NCBI GenBank assembly: GCA_000830175.1
Contig: JQIS01000050.1
Span: forward strand, 4,578-68,577
Source of the DNA: Sulfurovum sp. FS08-3
GTDB lineage: Bacteria > Campylobacterota > Campylobacteria > Campylobacterales > Sulfurovaceae
Direction: 5' to 3'
Length of the DNA stretch: 64,000 nucleotides
A program made the translations under genes and the position numbers. The notes under the pieces are model-generated. The model had not been told where the DNA came from. It ran no database searches and worked only from the letters and a program-made list of their open reading frames with translations. Numbering within the stretch: the first letter of the stretch is position 1; every line of letters begins with the position of its first letter. This document shows, piece after piece, positions 21,788 to 55,770 of the stretch.

Positions 21788-21865
21788 TTATCGCTTCTCT
21801 ACCACAATTATACTAAAATTGTCTCTATTGTGAGAGTTATTGACCTTGTCTATGGTGCATTTGAC
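21788..21865 (-). pseudogene. relic of a PP2C phosphatase 3' end
   Basis: Encodes VKCTIDKVNNSHNRDNFSIIVVEKR-stop. 21798-21844 is 47/47 identical to 22562-22608 inside the intact PP2C gene. Confidence 0.8.
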
Positions 21866-21883
21866 TCAAAATTTTAAATACAC

Positions 21884-21913
21884 TTGACATCAAGTCATAT
21901 TTTTGACTACAAT
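21884..21913 (+). promoter_or_regulatory. candidate promoter convergent on the cassette gene
   Basis: TTGACA (21884-21889), 18-nt spacer, TACAAT (21908-21913). Confidence 0.3.
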
Positions 21914-22039
21914 GTTTCTATTAAAACTAAGTGAAGTGAAAATAGGGGAGTTCACGTGCCTCATACCCTTAAATCAATTTGTTTTGGACGAGTTGAATAT
22001 TTAGAGCTTACGGCTGGGGCGGACTGGTATGGCAAAAAT

Positions 22040-22059
22040 GTGGGGCGTTTCCCTCCCAC
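22040..22059 (-). terminator. hairpin terminator after the 133-aa cassette gene
   Basis: On the minus strand GTGGG-N10-CCCAC is followed by ATTTTTG, a few nt after the stop at 22063. Confidence 0.5.
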
Positions 22060-22062
22060 CGC

Positions 22063-22464
22063 TTAGTTTTTTAAATACTCTTCAAAATTACTTTTTTCTT
22101 TTTTATCCAAAAATACCATACTATCTTTGCATTTCACAAGCTGTCTAGTGTTTGGTTTGAATATTGTAGTAAGCTCATTTCTAAAATTATTGATTGAAAT
22201 GCCATAAATCAAATACTCTGCTTCATGCATTGTAATAAAGTTTTTAACCCCATCTTCTTTGTAGTGACAAGAGGCAATTGTATTATCCAAAAGCACTTGA
22301 AAATTGTGTTCTTCTATAAACTTTGCTTGATTTGGATGTTCAATTGATATTTTATTCGATTTCTTTCTTGTTAAGTATAGTTTTTTACTCTTGAACGTAT
22401 TTCTATGAAAATGTAAAACAATTGGATGCAAGTAGCCTAATAATATTCTATTCTTAGAACCCAA
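22063..22464 (-). CDS. hypothetical protein (cargo of the 0.7-kb insert)
   Basis: 133 aa, TTG start; TATAAT element on the minus strand about 45 nt upstream; AT-rich; no motif recognised. Confidence 0.5.
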   Translation of the reverse strand: MGSKNRILLGYLHPIVLHFHRNTFKSKKLYLTRKKSNKISIEHPNQAKFIEEHNFQVLLDNTIASCHYKEDGVKNFITMHEAEYLIYGISINNFRNELTTIFKPNTRQLVKCKDSMVFLDKKEKSNFEEYLKN

Positions 22465-22536
22465 AATATACCTTTTGAAAATTTGACAGCATTATAGCCA
22501 ATAATTTAAAAGTTACATCGCAGGTTTTAAAAGCAT

Positions 22537-23304
22537 TCACAAAAAAGGGTGCAATTTCATTTCTACCACAATTATACTAAAATTGTCTCTATTGTGAGAG
22601 TTATTGACTCTATCTATCAAGCACTCTATTGCATTTGGCTCTCCAAAGCAACTCTCCATTGTTTCCAAACTCATCGCCTCCCATACCCCATCACTGCAAA
22701 TCAAAAAGGTTTCGATGGGTTTCAATGCGATAGTTTTGATTTCAATTTGGGGCATAGTGTTGCTCAAATCGCCCACAATGGCTGAGCTTAAGAGATTTCG
22801 GTGGGGATGGTGATTGATTTTGGTACATTCAAGTAGACCCCTATCGACTAAGTTTTGCACATGGGAGTGGTCACGGCTAAGCTGTTCCAAAAAGACTCCG
22901 CTTAAGCGATAGACTCGGCTATCTCCGCTATTAAATACCGTCGCTCTATCGCCTTGCAACAAAACCCCAGCGATTGTAGAGCCAAAGTTGCGTTTGGTGC
23001 TATCTGTGAATGCTTCGCTATCAAGCCTCTTTTTGGCATTGTGAAGCGTATCAATAATGCTCTCGTGAACGCTTAGTGTTTCGTACTCTTGAAGCAATTG
23101 ACTCAAAACCAACCAACTAGCCTCTTCGCCGTTGTTCTCGCCGCCCATTCCATCGGCTAGGGCAAAGAGGGCTTTGTTGCTCTCAAAGGTTTTGTGCTGT
23201 ATGGGTTGGATTTGCGTTTGAATCAACTCTCTATCGATAAGCAGTGCATCTTCGTTGGAGTCTCTATCGCCTCGATGGCTGAAGTAGGTAGCGACGATAG
23301 GCAT
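22537..23304 (-). CDS. PPM/PP2C-family Ser/Thr protein phosphatase
   Basis: Motifs RGDRDSNEDA, ADGMGG, NSGDSRVY, CSDGVWE, RDNFSII. Confidence 0.85.
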   Translation of the reverse strand: MPIVATYFSHRGDRDSNEDALLIDRELIQTQIQPIQHKTFESNKALFALADGMGGENNGEEASWLVLSQLLQEYETLSVHESIIDTLHNAKKRLDSEAFTDSTKRNFGSTIAGVLLQGDRATVFNSGDSRVYRLSGVFLEQLSRDHSHVQNLVDRGLLECTKINHHPHRNLLSSAIVGDLSNTMPQIEIKTIALKPIETFLICSDGVWEAMSLETMESCFGEPNAIECLIDRVNNSHNRDNFSIIVVEMKLHPFL

Positions 23305-51269: not shown

Positions 51270-52058
51270 TTATAGATGGTGTGGAGTTGGTTTAGGGCTA
51301 TCTTTATGAACATACCGCCCCAAAACGTAGTCGTTTTTGAAAAATCGCTCGATAAAGGGGTGTTGGGTGGCGAGTACCTCCTTTAGAGTTCCTTGTGCTA
51401 CGACCTTTTTGTCTGCCAAAATCGAAAATCTATCGATGATGGAAAAGATAGAGTCAAGGTCATGGGTGATAATCACAATGGTAATATCAAGCAAATTGCG
51501 TAACTCTACAATCAATTTATCAAAATCTCTAGCCCCAATGGGATCAAGCCCAGAGGTTGGTTCATCCAAAAAGAGCAGTTTGGGATCCATTGCCAAAGCT
51601 CTTGCAAGGGCGACACGCTTGATCATCCCTCCGCTAAGCTGTGCGGGATAGAGAGAGGCTACATCGGGAGAGAGTCCTACCATATTGAGTTTGGTTGCTA
51701 CGATTTGATTGATGAGTTTTTGAGGGGTTTGGGTGTATTCAGAGATAGCAATAGCGATATTTTGAGCCACATTGAGCGAGGAGTACAACGCTCCAAATTG
51801 AAAGAGTATCCCCCATTTTTGACGCAATGCTTGAGCCTCTTGATAGGTGATGGTGTTGAGATTGTAGCCTAGTACCTCTATCTCACCGCTTGTGGGTTGA
51901 AGCAACATAATCATCTCTTGAATAAGTAGCGTTTTACCCGCACCGCTCTCTCCGAGTATCCCGTAAATTTCTCCCGCTTCGATGGTTAGATTGATACCAT
52001 CATGTATCACTTTTTCTCCAAAACTTGTGACGATATTTCGCATTGATACTACGCTCAT
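51270..52058 (-). CDS. ABC transporter ATP-binding protein (MlaF-like)
   Basis: Walker A GESGAGKT, LSGGM, Walker B LLFLDEPTSGLD. Confidence 0.85.
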   Translation of the reverse strand: MSVVSMRNIVTSFGEKVIHDGINLTIEAGEIYGILGESGAGKTLLIQEMIMLLQPTSGEIEVLGYNLNTITYQEAQALRQKWGILFQFGALYSSLNVAQNIAIAISEYTQTPQKLINQIVATKLNMVGLSPDVASLYPAQLSGGMIKRVALARALAMDPKLLFLDEPTSGLDPIGARDFDKLIVELRNLLDITIVIITHDLDSIFSIIDRFSILADKKVVAQGTLKEVLATQHPFIERFFKNDYVLGRYVHKDSPKPTPHHL

Positions 52059-53164
52059 ATCCCCAGTCCTGTAAAAAATATCGAAAAGAGTGCATCGCAG
52101 ACAATCACAAAAAAGATGGAATTAACCACGCTTTTGGTGGTGTAGTATCCTATGCTTTGGGTATTGGATGAGACTTGAAATCCTCTATAGGTGCTAATAA
52201 TGGCAATAATAACCGCAAAAAAGGGAGCTTTGAGGATGCCTATGAGATAGTGTGTGGGCGAAAGTGCACTTTGGAGTCGGTGAATGAACTGCTCAAAAGA
52301 GATACCCAGTTCCAAATTGGCTACCACCATACCTCCAAAAATCCCCACAATATCAGCAAAAAAGATAAGCAAAGGCATAGCGACAATCAGAGCAAATATG
52401 CGAGGAAGTACCAAAAAGTAGTAGGGGTCAAATCCCATGGTTTTCATCGCATTAATCTCTTGTGTAATCTTCATCGCTCCAATTTGAGCCGTATAGGATG
52501 AGCCGCTTCGTCCAGCTATAACAATGGCGGTAATCATGGGGGCTAGTTCTCGTGTGATAGAGATTCCAATCATATCGACGATAAAAATATCGGCTCCAAA
52601 TTTCGCCAACTGCACCGCACTTTGATAAGCAATCACAAGCCCTACCAAAAAAGCCGTAAGGGCCACAATAGGCAAGGCGTTGATGCCTGAGATGTGAATG
52701 TAGTAGCTTATCTCTTTGAAGCGTATTTTGCTAGGCGATAGGAGGGATTGCCCAAAAGCCATAGTTGTTTGCCCCAAAAACTCCAATAGCTCTTTGCCCC
52801 CCTCTAGGCTTTTGAGTGTGGCTTTGCCGATACGATGGAAGATATTGGGGGTTTTGATAGTAATGGTAGAGTTTTTGCTGTGGAGTTCAAGCAGTTTGTA
52901 CATTCGCTTTTGTTTGTCGTTGTAGCCAATAATCTCTACGGTGTGTTTTTGTTGAAAGGTGTGGTAGTATTGACGAAAGAGTATCACACCTGCACTATCA
53001 AAGCTCTCGATACCGCTCACATCCCACACGATAGAGCGATTGTTTATCTTTTTGAGTAGCTCACTTAGCTCTTTGTCTATGGCTTTGAGATGGTAGATGT
53101 TCCAATGGTTGATGGAATGTAGCGTAATAGAGCGGTCGTTTTGGGTAATGGATAGATAGGTCAT
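52055..53164 (-). CDS. MlaE-family ABC permease with an N-terminal STAS-like extension
   Basis: Polytopic C-terminal 250 aa; 4-nt overlap with the ATPase gene. Confidence 0.75.
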   Translation of the reverse strand: MTYLSITQNDRSITLHSINHWNIYHLKAIDKELSELLKKINNRSIVWDVSGIESFDSAGVILFRQYYHTFQQKHTVEIIGYNDKQKRMYKLLELHSKNSTITIKTPNIFHRIGKATLKSLEGGKELLEFLGQTTMAFGQSLLSPSKIRFKEISYYIHISGINALPIVALTAFLVGLVIAYQSAVQLAKFGADIFIVDMIGISITRELAPMITAIVIAGRSGSSYTAQIGAMKITQEINAMKTMGFDPYYFLVLPRIFALIVAMPLLIFFADIVGIFGGMVVANLELGISFEQFIHRLQSALSPTHYLIGILKAPFFAVIIAIISTYRGFQVSSNTQSIGYYTTKSVVNSIFFVIVCDALFSIFFTGLGI

Positions 53165-53188
53165 GAGTTGCCTCTCTCTAATTTGTTG

Positions 53189-53566
53189 TTAAATATACTC
53201 AATATCTCTCATAGGGTAGTGTTTTTTATTATTTGTCCAAAGCTTCATGCTGTTTATTTTGGCTGATGCGGCAATCATATAATCTTCTAGTGAGATTTTA
53301 TTGAAAGCTTTACTGTATTGATTGGTATAGAGTCCTGCTTGTATGCCTGTTTGTTTGCATATGTCTATATTTGTTAAACGATTAAAAAAATCCTCTATAG
53401 TCTTATATTCTTTTTTGAATGCACCTGCGTATATCTCGGCTACTACAATAGGGTTGTAGTAAAATGTTGTGTTGTTGTTATAGAGATTTAAAAAAGCATC
53501 AACAAAGTATCCATCTTTTTTAAGTAGATTGATAATTATATCGGTATCAAGCATGACTCTATTCAT
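53189..53566 (-). CDS. PIN-domain toxin (VapC-like)
   Basis: MLDTDIIINLLK N-terminus with the conserved acidic residue; 125 aa. Confidence 0.7.
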   Translation of the reverse strand: MNRVMLDTDIIINLLKKDGYFVDAFLNLYNNNTTFYYNPIVVAEIYAGAFKKEYKTIEDFFNRLTNIDICKQTGIQAGLYTNQYSKAFNKISLEDYMIAASAKINSMKLWTNNKKHYPMRDIEYI

Positions 53567-53804
53567 TTATTATCCTGCTGTTGGCTCTTAGGTTATCAAC
53601 GTATTGGATACTATCTCTATTTTCAAAACTCTTTAGAGGCTTCATGTTGTCAAAAAAAGCATTCATATCCTCTTTTTTATCACGTTTCAATTCATTATTT
53701 ATCGCTTTTTGGACAAATTCGGATACACTTATATTTAAAGATTTGGATATATCTTCTATTTTTGAAAAAATATCATTATCAATAGCTATATGTCTTTGAT
53801 ACAT
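53559..53804 (-). CDS. VapB-like antitoxin
   Basis: Small ORF overlapping vapC by 8 nt; ATG 53804 preferred over TTG 53843. Confidence 0.55.
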   Translation of the reverse strand: MYQRHIAIDNDIFSKIEDISKSLNISVSEFVQKAINNELKRDKKEDMNAFFDNMKPLKSFENRDSIQYVDNLRANSRIINE

Positions 53805-53842
53805 TTGTAATCCTTTTAAGTTCTTAAAATACAATTTAAACA

Positions 53843-53999
53843 ATTATATCCAAATTTCCATTATCGGTTTTGTATTGTTTATCTTTTTGAGTAGCTCACT
53901 TAGCTCTTTGTCTATGGCTTTGAGATGGTAGATGTTCCAATGGTTGATGGAGTGTAGAGTAATAGAGCGGTCGTTTTGGGTAATGGATAGATAGGTCAT
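53843..53999 (-). repeat. junction duplication: 32-bp copy of the acpS 3' end/downstream fused to a 126-bp copy of the mlaE 5' end
   Basis: 53843-53874 equals 55393-55424. 53874-53999 equals 53039-53164 with 2 mismatches. Confidence 0.9.
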
Positions 54000-54412
54000 T
54001 GTTGGATGTATTCTTGAATTTGTTGAACAAAAATGCCAAAATCATCAATCAAATCTAAAAAATCATAGAGTTTTTTCATATCAATAGCGATGTATTCATG
54101 GATTAAGATGTTTTTTGGTCCTATAATTTGTATCAATTTATCATGTAGAGATTGATTGATGTAATGTGATTGTTTTAATAAAACAATACACTCTCCATAG
54201 CTTTTTGGATTGCCTAAATTGTATCGATTGACAAGATGACATGAGATGTCGATAATAATTTGAATACTCTCAAAGAGTCCGTATCGCAAAGACCACTCAT
54301 TAAACTTATCATTTTCTAGGTCTTGAAATGTAATAGTAGATTTATACTCTTTGAGTTTTGCAATGTTGTTTTCAAGTACTTCCAAGCGTTCAAGCATAAT
54401 TTCTCTCTCCAA
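53996..54412 (-). CDS. HepT-like (DUF86) toxin
   Basis: KNILIHEY (Rx4HxY-type motif with K for R), 138 aa, overlaps the nucleotidyltransferase gene. Confidence 0.65.
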   Translation of the reverse strand: MEREIMLERLEVLENNIAKLKEYKSTITFQDLENDKFNEWSLRYGLFESIQIIIDISCHLVNRYNLGNPKSYGECIVLLKQSHYINQSLHDKLIQIIGPKNILIHEYIAIDMKKLYDFLDLIDDFGIFVQQIQEYIQQ

Positions 54413-54812
54413 AGAATCCAGACTCTATACGACGTTTGAGACTTTCATTGCTTTGTTGTATCAATGGATAGGTATCAAAGTAGTAGAGCATCGAGTTGGT
54501 TTTGAAGTCTATATAAGCATTTTCATCTACAATTGTTATAGGTATATGGTTGGTTGTAATATTATAAGCCAAGAGCGGATGCGTTTTGTAAAGGTGATTG
54601 AGAGTATTGATTTCAATCTTTTTATGCAATTGCATTTCCAAATAAGTCGTATATCCACCCATTTCAAGCACCGAAGAGGGAGTTTTAAAATGAATGGCTA
54701 TATCAATATCACTCATAGGAGTCGCTTTTGCCTGTGCATAGGAGCCATAAAGCAACACAAAATCAATAGTGGATAACTTATCACTAAAATATGCCTCAAT
54801 AGTATCTATCAT
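54390..54812 (-). CDS. MNT-type nucleotidyltransferase antitoxin
   Basis: LLYGSYAQAKATPMSDIDIAI (GSx10-ish SDxD) motif. Confidence 0.7.
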   Translation of the reverse strand: MIDTIEAYFSDKLSTIDFVLLYGSYAQAKATPMSDIDIAIHFKTPSSVLEMGGYTTYLEMQLHKKIEINTLNHLYKTHPLLAYNITTNHIPITIVDENAYIDFKTNSMLYYFDTYPLIQQSNESLKRRIESGFFGERNYA

Positions 54813-54876
54813 CTTTTTCTCCTTTGGAAATTATAGCATATTAGTTTTGTACAATCACCACTAAAACATCCTCTCT

Positions 54877-55152
54877 TTATTCCCACAAATTTTGATTAAA
54901 AATACCAAGTATGATAATTTTTTGCTTTTTGTTATCAATTTCAAATGGGATAGTGTATCCTTTATATATAAGTTCTCGTACGTTTTTATCTATAGCATTT
55001 TCTTTTTTTCTGTAAGCATAAGGATTGTTTGGGATGTTTTCTATTTTATCTATCACTTCATCAAAAAATTTCAATGCTCGTAGGGGGCTATCTTTGGCGA
55101 TGAATTGAACAATAACATCAAATTCTAAATCAAATCTAACAGATTGTTCCAA
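54877..55152 (-). CDS. ParE/RelE-family toxin
   Basis: 91 aa; ..YRKKE...RELIYKGYTIPFEI....IIILGIF pattern. Confidence 0.6.
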   Translation of the reverse strand: MEQSVRFDLEFDVIVQFIAKDSPLRALKFFDEVIDKIENIPNNPYAYRKKENAIDKNVRELIYKGYTIPFEIDNKKQKIIILGIFNQNLWE

Positions 55153-55154
55153 AG

Positions 55155-55364
55155 TTAAAGTCTCGATACTAAATCCTCTCGAATTTTGTCAAGTCCCGTA
55201 CCAAAAGGTAGAGTTTGCATTTTGCCGTCTCTATACTCCTCGACTCTTTTATTGACCTCTTCATCCAGTGATTTTTTTATCACCACAGCATCGTTGGGTA
55301 AACTTTTCATCAGTTTATCGAACTGCTCTAAATACTGATCTTTTATACATATTTGCATGGTCAT
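55155..55364 (-). CDS. putative antitoxin
   Basis: 69-aa ORF 2 nt upstream of the ParE-like gene. Confidence 0.5.
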   Translation of the reverse strand: MTMQICIKDQYLEQFDKLMKSLPNDAVVIKKSLDEEVNKRVEEYRDGKMQTLPFGTGLDKIREDLVSRL

Positions 55365-55410
55365 GTGATTGTGCCTTTTGAATTGATTTTATATTATATC
55401 CAAATTTCCA

Positions 55411-55770
55411 TTATCGGTTTTGTACAATCACCACCACGGCAATAGCAAATCCGCCATCGTGGCTAATGGAGAGCGATGAGGTTTGGATAGAGTGGAGCAA
55501 TTGGGCTTTTGGGCTTAATCGAAAGTGCGGGGCATTTTTGGCATCTTTGTAGATTTCAATGTCGTGAAAAGCCAACTCACTCCCAATCCCACACCCCAAA
55601 GCTTTGGCAATAGCCTCTTTAGCAGCCCAATACCCAGCAAGAGAAGCGGGTTTTTGCGAAAGCATGGCTATTTCGCTATCATTTAAAAAACGTTGGGTAT
55701 AGCGTGTACCAAATCTCTCCAAAGCTCTCTGGATACGCTCAATAGCGACTATATCGGTGCCTATTTTCAT
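55411..55770 (-). CDS. acpS: holo-[acyl-carrier-protein] synthase
   Basis: MKIGTDIVAIERI N-terminus, AAKEAIAKALG motif, 119 aa. Confidence 0.9.
   Translation of the reverse strand: MKIGTDIVAIERIQRALERFGTRYTQRFLNDSEIAMLSQKPASLAGYWAAKEAIAKALGCGIGSELAFHDIEIYKDAKNAPHFRLSPKAQLLHSIQTSSLSISHDGGFAIAVVVIVQNR

Follow-up and report, generated by a model that had tools for sequence, protein, structure and literature searches.

Three Toxin–Antitoxin Modules Stacked Between acpS and mlaE in Sulfurovum sp. FS08-3: A Probable Product of Additive Recombination Between Alleles of One Slot

Gene Content of the acpS–mlaE Interval

The window analysed here is a stretch of 64 kb of DNA from Sulfurovum sp. FS08-3, the genome of which (hereafter G000) is a 68-contig draft of 2.54 Mb with an estimated completeness of 100%; unless a contig is named, all coordinates are those of the window. 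Our subject is the interval between acpS, which encodes the holo-ACP synthase, and mlaE. In this interval, three complete type II toxin–antitoxin (TA) pairs follow one another (ParE and its antitoxin; MNT-HepT; VapBC), as proposed in an initial annotation made from the letters alone and as now borne out by the open reading frames (ORFs) and their Pfam matches. Every gene across positions 52055–55770 lies on the minus strand, the order of transcription being acpS, unit A (ParE and antitoxin), unit B (MNT-HepT), an ORF of 51 aa, unit C (VapBC) and mlaE.

The upstream anchor gene of this slot, acpS (55770 to 55411, stop codon 55411–55413), is intact, with 119 aa and a PF01648 match of 1.9e-19 over profile positions 2–110 of 111, and orthologues were found in 40 of the 41 related genomes. 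Unit A is composed of a PF09720-like antitoxin of 69 aa (55364 to 55155) and a ParE toxin of 91 aa (PF05016; 55152 to 54877). In unit B, an MNT antitoxin of 140 aa (PF18765/PF01909; 54812 to 54390), with its GSX10DXD motif present, is followed by a HepT toxin of 138 aa (PF01934; 54412 to 53996). The 51-aa ORF (53999 to 53844) comes next; it is annotated as a gene in all public assemblies and consists of 42 mlaE codons and nine read-through codons. Unit C brings together a VapB antitoxin of 81 aa with an RHH domain (53804 to 53559) and a VapC toxin of 125 aa with a PIN domain (PF01850; 53566 to 53189). A leader of 24 nt (53165–53188), including the ribosome-binding site (RBS) AGAGAGAGG, then precedes the downstream anchor gene mlaE (53164 to 52055), which is intact as well (369 aa, STAS and MlaE permease). 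In all three pairs, small antitoxin and toxin genes of matching families are adjacent, as is the rule for type II TA systems, and the genes overlap or abut.

Each unit appears to have a TATAAT box and an RBS of its own, the boxes being putative promoter elements. Those that come after the acpS-end copies were not flagged in a scan for the sigma-70 consensus, because they lack a −35 match. The HEPN motif of HepT (residues ~99–104, window ~54100–54125) reads KNILIH, for a canonical RNILIH in a 65%-identical relative (L051). This substitution of lysine for the catalytic arginine (KX4H for RX4H) may have weakened the toxin.

Repeats at the Cassette Borders and Novel Joints

Two direct repeats had been reported at the cassette borders, and both are exact: positions 53843–53874 equal 55393–55424 (32/32 identical), and positions 54844–54861 equal 55417–55434 (18/18), the latter match extending to 21/23 over 54839–54861. 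The reference copy of the 32-bp repeat (55393–55424) is the native end of acpS, i.e., its last 11 coding nt, its stop codon and 18 nt ending with GGATATAAT, likely a −10 box; the second copy (53843–53874) represents what unit C has kept of its left flank. At the other end of unit B there is a third repeat, absent from the initial annotation: positions 53874–53999 (minus strand), the right flank remnant of this unit, copy the first 42 codons of mlaE (53039–53164) over 126 bp with two mismatches (124/126). The ATG of this mlaE fragment (mlaE′) overlaps the stop codon of HepT (ATGA), and its distal end is fused straight to the 32-bp copy of the acpS end, base 53874 being the only one common to both. 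One base of mlaE′ is common to the two sister species discussed below (G004 and G005) and not found in the resident mlaE. A BLAST alignment in which the mlaE′ homology ran 26 nt further into the 3′ end of HepT was set aside: comparison with a HepT relative identified the stretch as the native C-terminus of HepT, and the similarity was taken as chance or microhomology.

The left flank remnant of unit B is the copy at 54839–54861. This unit starts with GTGGTGATTGTACAAAAC-TAA-TATGCTATAAT, i.e., the last seven codons of acpS (ending in VVIVQN), closed by an alternative stop, TAA, directly behind QN; G004 has TGA at the same codon. The scrap, with its different stop, is as expected for a different acpS allele. 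After it come TGCTATAAT and the RBS of MNT, with a different extended −10-like box. As for the other two units, the acpS end reads, in gene orientation, GTACAAAACCGATAA TGGAAATTTGGATATAAT, and units A and C diverge right after TATAAT. Their left boundaries, directly after GGATATAAT, are therefore identical, while the other cassette boundaries differ on both sides.

In the 2.54-Mb genome, the 32-mer, the 23-mer and the 18-mer were found at the acpS–mlaE locus only, so that chance similarity in AT-rich DNA does not explain them. Genome-wide, there are exactly two copies of each repeat, which stands outside any dispersed repeat family. A repeat scan revealed no hairpin-type local inverted repeats at 53843–53874, 54839–54876 or 55393–55424, in agreement with the earlier report that attC-like hairpins are absent from the borders.

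The whole stack includes only two novel joints. At the first (J1, 54861/54862), the end of unit A and a remnant of the mlaE RBS are joined to position −24 of acpS. On the left side of this joint (54862–54876, gene strand), the stop codon of ParE is followed by AGAGAGG, then by 9 nt (ATGTTTTAG); the AGAGAGG motif matches the RBS stretch of mlaE, TAAAGAGAGG, from which it presumably derives. At the second (J2), position +126 of mlaE is joined to position −14 of acpS at base 53874, with a microhomology of 1 nt. The positions of J1 and J2 differ in both flanking genes, and neither joint features more than 1 nt of microhomology. Accordingly, the acpS copies start at different positions (55424 vs. 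55434) and have different partners (mlaE +126 vs. the RBS region). J2 fuses the right border of the slot to its left border. Such a joint is the mark of a tandem duplication or unequal exchange spanning the whole slot, the cargo differing from copy to copy, and not that of an att crossover.

Occurrence of the Stack and State of the Slot in Relatives

The same gene order, with both joints, was recovered in the NCBI assembly GCA_974333055.1, in two contigs of the Joint Genome Institute (JGI) metagenome 3300000236 and in one contig of 3300000232. Moreover, J1 is carried by a Logan unitig found in eight samples and by a slightly divergent Logan unitig from ERR14841023 (four mismatches in 1441 bp). 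Both of these unitigs stop precisely where the 32-bp and 126-bp repeats lie, and one further Logan contig ends 16 nt past acpS. Since metagenome contigs and metagenome-assembled genomes (MAGs) that were assembled separately contain it too, the stack is not a chimera of the FS08-3 assembly.

Among 40 related genomes, acpS stays adjacent to mlaE in only two sister species, G004 and G005. The comparison of the interval across relatives, as suggested in the initial annotation, indicates that it is not invariant, since its contents differ between G000, G004 and G005. In the G005 type (several MAGs and metagenome contigs), acpS is followed by the very same 32 bp, by VapB and VapC, then by mlaE, the interval being otherwise empty; this arrangement is collinear with the window from 53874 to 52963 at 97%. 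In the G004 type, acpS is followed by the 32 bp (31/32), the antitoxin of unit A, ~130 bp of debris, the mlaE leader and mlaE. The antitoxin of G004 is 97% identical to that of unit A and has the same left boundary, along with an altered C-terminus; it is an orphan left after the loss of its toxin. Each of these species has one acpS end and one mlaE start, so the sequences repeated in the stack are single-copy at their site, and no flanking repeat surrounds the single cassette of either G005 (VapBC only) or G004. As each holds one cassette, neither provides a truly empty site. When the acpS-end and mlaE-start borders of G004 and G005 are compared, the longest common k-mer reaches 7 nt, just as expected after shuffling. 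Altogether, the acpS–mlaE interval is a variable slot that normally houses one module.

In 100-nt windows, VapBC is 97–99% identical between G000 and G005, against 82–99% for the flanking acpS, mlaE and mlaF, which suggests that VapBC is younger than its surroundings and was recently passed between species.

Two further features of the relatives deserve mention. In the ~130 bp that stand in the place of ParE in G004 (L005/L066), there are two hairpins rich in GC (TTCGGCTTTAGCCGAA and CTCGGCTAAAGCCGAG), together with the tail of an ORF that could not be assigned. In G005-type genomes (L039–L045, L047), a DarT/Macro (DarTG-like) pair is found directly upstream of acpS, where G000 has a HisKA/response-regulator pair; hence, in this clade, TA modules land on either side of acpS.

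Origin of the Stack

We propose that the stack results from additive, duplicative recombination between alleles of one slot, and put the probability of this reading at about 0.7. Three haplotypes, acpS–ParDE-like–mlaE, acpS–MNT/HepT–mlaE and acpS–VapBC–mlaE, would have been joined head to tail, each unit keeping a flank scrap from its own acpS–X–mlaE haplotype. Thus, unit B would have retained the last 18–23 nt of its acpS (with the different stop) at its start and the first 126 nt of its mlaE at its end, while unit C would have retained the last 14 nt of acpS and the 18 nt of the post-stop promoter region, before running into the intact mlaE. Two events would be involved, each of them combining one crossover in a shared flank with one illegitimate or unequal join (J1 and J2). 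An insertion with long target duplication would arise here since the DNA that comes in is itself an allelic version of the slot; given the hybrid joint and the single-cassette relatives, the so-called duplication would be flanking DNA brought by the allelic donor.

The scenario would begin with the uptake of DNA from a relative having a different allele of the slot; ComEC and DprA are both encoded in the genome. A clean allelic replacement would then remove the resident TA pair, the stable toxin of which would kill the recombinant. The survivors would be cells keeping the old cassette in addition to the new one, so that cassettes would accrete, acpS and mlaE both being intact in the stack. In such a process, the killing that follows the loss of a resident TA pair probably favours additive outcomes.

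Several observations weigh against this proposal. First, it does not account for the 9 nt at J1 (ATGTTTTAG). Second, the left boundary common to units A and C could hint at a preferred insertion point. Third, the scenario needs the loss of the resident TA to be lethal, and HepT has a lysine in place of its catalytic arginine. Fourth, the assemblies that contain the stack are all nearly identical and do not form a population-level series of intermediates. Finally, no single acpS–MNT-HepT–mlaE haplotype was found in genome or metagenome contigs: when HepT and MNT were looked up as exact proteins, the only contigs retrieved, if any, had the full stack, and scans of genome and metagenome contigs yielded only distant relatives of MNT (37–65% identity) in other contexts. 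Consequently, it is only from its flank scraps that unit B is taken as an allele of the slot.

The alternative that fares best reverses the order of the steps, and in practice differs from recombination between alleles by this order only. The slot, from acpS −14 to mlaE +126, would first have been tandemly duplicated in a single lineage by unequal crossing-over or slippage, after which the cargo of one copy would have been swapped by homologous replacement, the DNA coming from relatives. J2 is indeed a textbook tandem-duplication joint, in which the 3′ border of a unit meets its 5′ border with 1 nt of microhomology, and the flanks hardly differ between their two copies (32/32 and 124/126). Yet, J1 then requires a second, independent event with other breakpoints. 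Furthermore, the acpS scrap of unit B, with its different stop codon and promoter region, points to a foreign flank rather than a local copy, and at one base mlaE′ agrees with G004 and G005 against the resident mlaE. We therefore regard a duplication preceding the exchange as rather unlikely.

Somewhat less credible still is a dedicated cassette-insertion process working without homology to an allelic donor, which would place addiction modules, from promoter to stop codon, at gene borders and duplicate tens to hundreds of target bases. Many loci of the genome do show such a scar around TA or defence cargo (see below), and insertion with long target duplication is still without a known mechanism (PMC2853133). 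In the present case, however, the “duplicated target” is made of pieces of both flanking genes with allele-specific differences, as a donor locus would bring them, and such pieces would not result from a staggered cut made at a single point of the target; nor was any candidate enzyme found.

The initial annotation had favoured another explanation, in which the 3′ end of acpS behaves as an att-like site, reused by a recombinase encoded elsewhere for the serial insertion of TA cassettes in an integron-like array. Part of this view holds: the slot is variable and accreting, similar scars exist elsewhere in the genome, and no recombinase is encoded in cis, as there is no tyrosine recombinase on the contig. 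The suggested search for recombinases acting in trans brought up six tyrosine recombinases (PF00589), none of them on the contig of the window. Such enzymes, the acpS-end copies at two cassette borders (which overlap over 13 nt, 55412–55424), the uniform orientation of the cassettes and the left boundary shared by units A and C are all compatible with an attachment site. Nevertheless, a site-specific insertion should leave attL and attR around a single cassette, and no single element bracketed by two core copies was observed: in the relatives with one cassette, the site is there only once, which is why the repeats are not considered att cores. The crossover position is not the same in every copy either, since the two copies have different starting points and 126 nt of the downstream gene are fused to one of them, J2 including codon 42 of mlaE. 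An att core might be expected to be met again at other cassette-like loci, yet no locus but this one has the 32-, 23- and 18-nt repeats. The comparison with integrons fails on further points. There are no hairpins at the borders (hence no attC) and no IntI, either nearby or in the genome, where the best TIGR02249 score reaches 53.8 bits for a cut-off of 265; moreover, each cassette apparently has its own promoter, unlike integron cassettes. The copies of the presumed attachment site are thus best read as recombination scars, and we hold a reusable att site to be very improbable.

Lastly, it is hardly conceivable that three co-existing single-cassette strains were stitched into one contig during assembly, for even if the genome is a 68-contig draft and the 32- and 126-bp repeats do break short-read unitigs, J1 and J2 are unique sequences that an assembler cannot invent from an overlap of at most 1 nt, both joints recur in contigs from several separately assembled samples, and no contig was found with a single-cassette version of this species.

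Comparison with Known Systems

For gene units of restriction-modification (RM) systems, insertion with long target duplication was reportedly described by Nobusato et al. in 2000 (Gene 259:99). With RM cargo, it is documented chiefly in bacteria with natural competence, epsilon-proteobacteria among them, and its repeats often span start or stop codons (PMC2853133; Furuta, Abe & Kobayashi 2010). The acpS–mlaE locus is alike in that the cargo is small and of the addiction type, without transposase or integrase, and in that direct repeats of >30 bp of the local target sequence are present, which are unique in the genome, single in relatives and not dispersed, with no linked mobility gene. This length is exceeded by the 32-bp (100%) and 126-bp (98%) repeats, the remaining one being of 18–23 bp only. 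The repeats also span a stop or start codon, and the host genes stay whole. The locus differs by its type II TA cargo, by the stacking of three units and by the joint between the 5′ end of the downstream gene and the 3′ end of the upstream gene. In the review PMC3874152, insertion with long target duplication is mentioned for RM systems only, and we found no description in the literature of anything of this kind for TA modules.

A second parallel is offered by the minimal mobile elements of Neisseria, reportedly described by Saunders and Snyder in 2002, in which differing whole-gene cassettes are said to lie between conserved flanking genes, without mobility genes, and presumably to be exchanged by transformation and homologous recombination in the flanks. 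Here too, different cassettes are found between the same conserved genes depending on the lineage. In Neisseria, however, one cassette replaces another, while three coexist in tandem at the acpS–mlaE locus, with hybrid joints.

The additive outcome itself has precedents. According to the review PMC3874152, which cites Handa et al. 2001, chromosomal RM systems resist allelic replacement. In S. pneumoniae, transformation with a lethal cassette produces merodiploids with both copies, via unequal interchromatid exchange (PMC3784515; Johnston et al. 2013). As we propose for the stack, a lethal replacement leaves survivors that combine the old and the new allele through unequal exchange. Those cases are nonetheless laboratory events that deal with RM or essential genes and with duplications of ≥100 kb between insertion sequence (IS) copies, whereas the stack is natural, with 0.8–1.5 kb per unit and illegitimate joints. 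As to the TA arrays of integrons and superintegrons, these also consist of tandem, co-oriented small cassettes, including TA pairs, with a short border repeat. The stack differs from them in having no IntI, no attI and no attC hairpins, in the cassettes' own promoters, in repeats that are the ends of host genes and in the unbracketed single cassettes of the relatives. All things considered, the locus resembles both an RM-type insertion with long target duplication and a minimal-mobile-element slot, from which the TA cargo, the stacking of three alleles and the hybrid joint set it apart.

How chromosomal TA and small defence modules move without transposase or integrase is poorly understood, and the mechanism of insertion with long target duplication has been an open question since 2000. 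The acpS–mlaE locus is informative in this respect: the sister species keep single-cassette states and the stack keeps allele-specific scraps of both flanks. Owing to these two features, the duplication can be traced to recombination between alleles rather than to an att site or to staggered cutting. The main value of the locus is to be a natural and interpretable record of the accumulation of addiction cassettes without an integrase, and it raises the question whether addiction itself drives their tandem accretion into defence or TA islands. More tentatively, addiction modules might turn allelic replacement into accretion as a rule in competent bacteria, with the long-target-duplication scar around many integrase-free TA, RM and defence cassettes as the general footprint and the present locus as a record of two rounds; we consider this extension possible, although the odds are against it.

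Similar Duplications Elsewhere in the Genome

Other loci were searched for by comparing the genome with itself for direct repeats lying 0.2–6 kb apart, after removal of the array of clustered regularly interspaced short palindromic repeats (CRISPR) and of the multi-copy dispersed elements. This revealed ~14 other two-copy local duplications of 37–357 bp around TA or defence cargo in G000, of which at least five copy the 3′ part of a flanking gene; since the cargo to annotate was chosen by us, this number is a tally of loci and not a formal test of enrichment. TA and TA-like cargo includes an RHH+PIN (VapBC) pair (C59:383003-384824, 99-bp duplication), a small ORF with a GNAT protein (C59:355724-357707, 154 bp), UPF0175 and BrnT (C37:2793-4153, 114 bp), MazEF with an AIPR protein (C6:6682-9312, 71 bp), and HigA-like and BrnA-like genes (C62:234398-239465). 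Duplications were also observed around two RhuM-family genes (C57:5476-7708, 128 bp; C59:152373-153656, 67 bp), a Schlafen/AlbA_2 protein (C59:40556-42347, 136 bp), AAA_21/AAA_15 ATPases (C62:101097-104608 and C30:6329-8675) and DUF559 with a YhcG nuclease (C46:40798-44990); C51:31013-33203 is a further two-copy local duplication listed among these loci.

Within the window, the same logic had been noticed at a PP2C gene (21798–22617, minus strand), the end of which was said to be duplicated around a cargo. The duplication is real, with copies at 21798–21853 and 22562–22617 (56 bp, 95%) that bracket a 133-aa ORF (22063–22464) without Pfam match. The distal copy, beside the downstream gene, looks like the one that keeps the original IIVVEKR end of the protein. 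In G004, both copies are kept and part of the cargo is deleted. Around the whole module of NrdG-like, FHA, PP2C and membrane-protein genes, there is in addition a direct repeat of 138 bp (20131–20268/25029–25166, 96%, two copies in the genome), so that an insertion with long target duplication may also have brought in the 4.9-kb NrdG-like/FHA/PP2C block as a whole.

For four other duplication loci, an empty site was looked for in G004 and G005, and the flanks lie on different contigs of these fragmented drafts. At the RhuM locus, the pieces are permuted in G004 (L057, C166) with respect to G000 (C59:151000-155000), and the site is not empty: the order is the RhuM gene, the repeat, ~950 bp of other DNA, the repeat again and the segment lying before RhuM in G000. 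Here too, units with a 38–67-bp repeat at their borders seem to have been shuffled or stacked.

Two kinds of candidates were discarded. Five 31-bp repeats on C62, considered as a second cassette array, turned out to be a CRISPR array with repeated spacers. This array (C62:142400-148600 of G000, repeat ATAATAACAACGTCCTTATAGGATTTGAAAC) adjoins a block of large unannotated ORFs, and several of its spacers are duplicated. Likewise, the repeat pairs around TA cargo on C12, C17, C23, C53, C54 and at C62:339755 were excluded as multi-copy dispersed elements. They belong to dispersed families of short repeats (5 to 33 copies), some with palindromic cores, that resemble miniature inverted-repeat transposable elements (MITE) or repetitive extragenic palindromic (REP) sequences, and they too flank TA pairs, among them Phd+PIN (C23) and a YafQ-like pair (C12).

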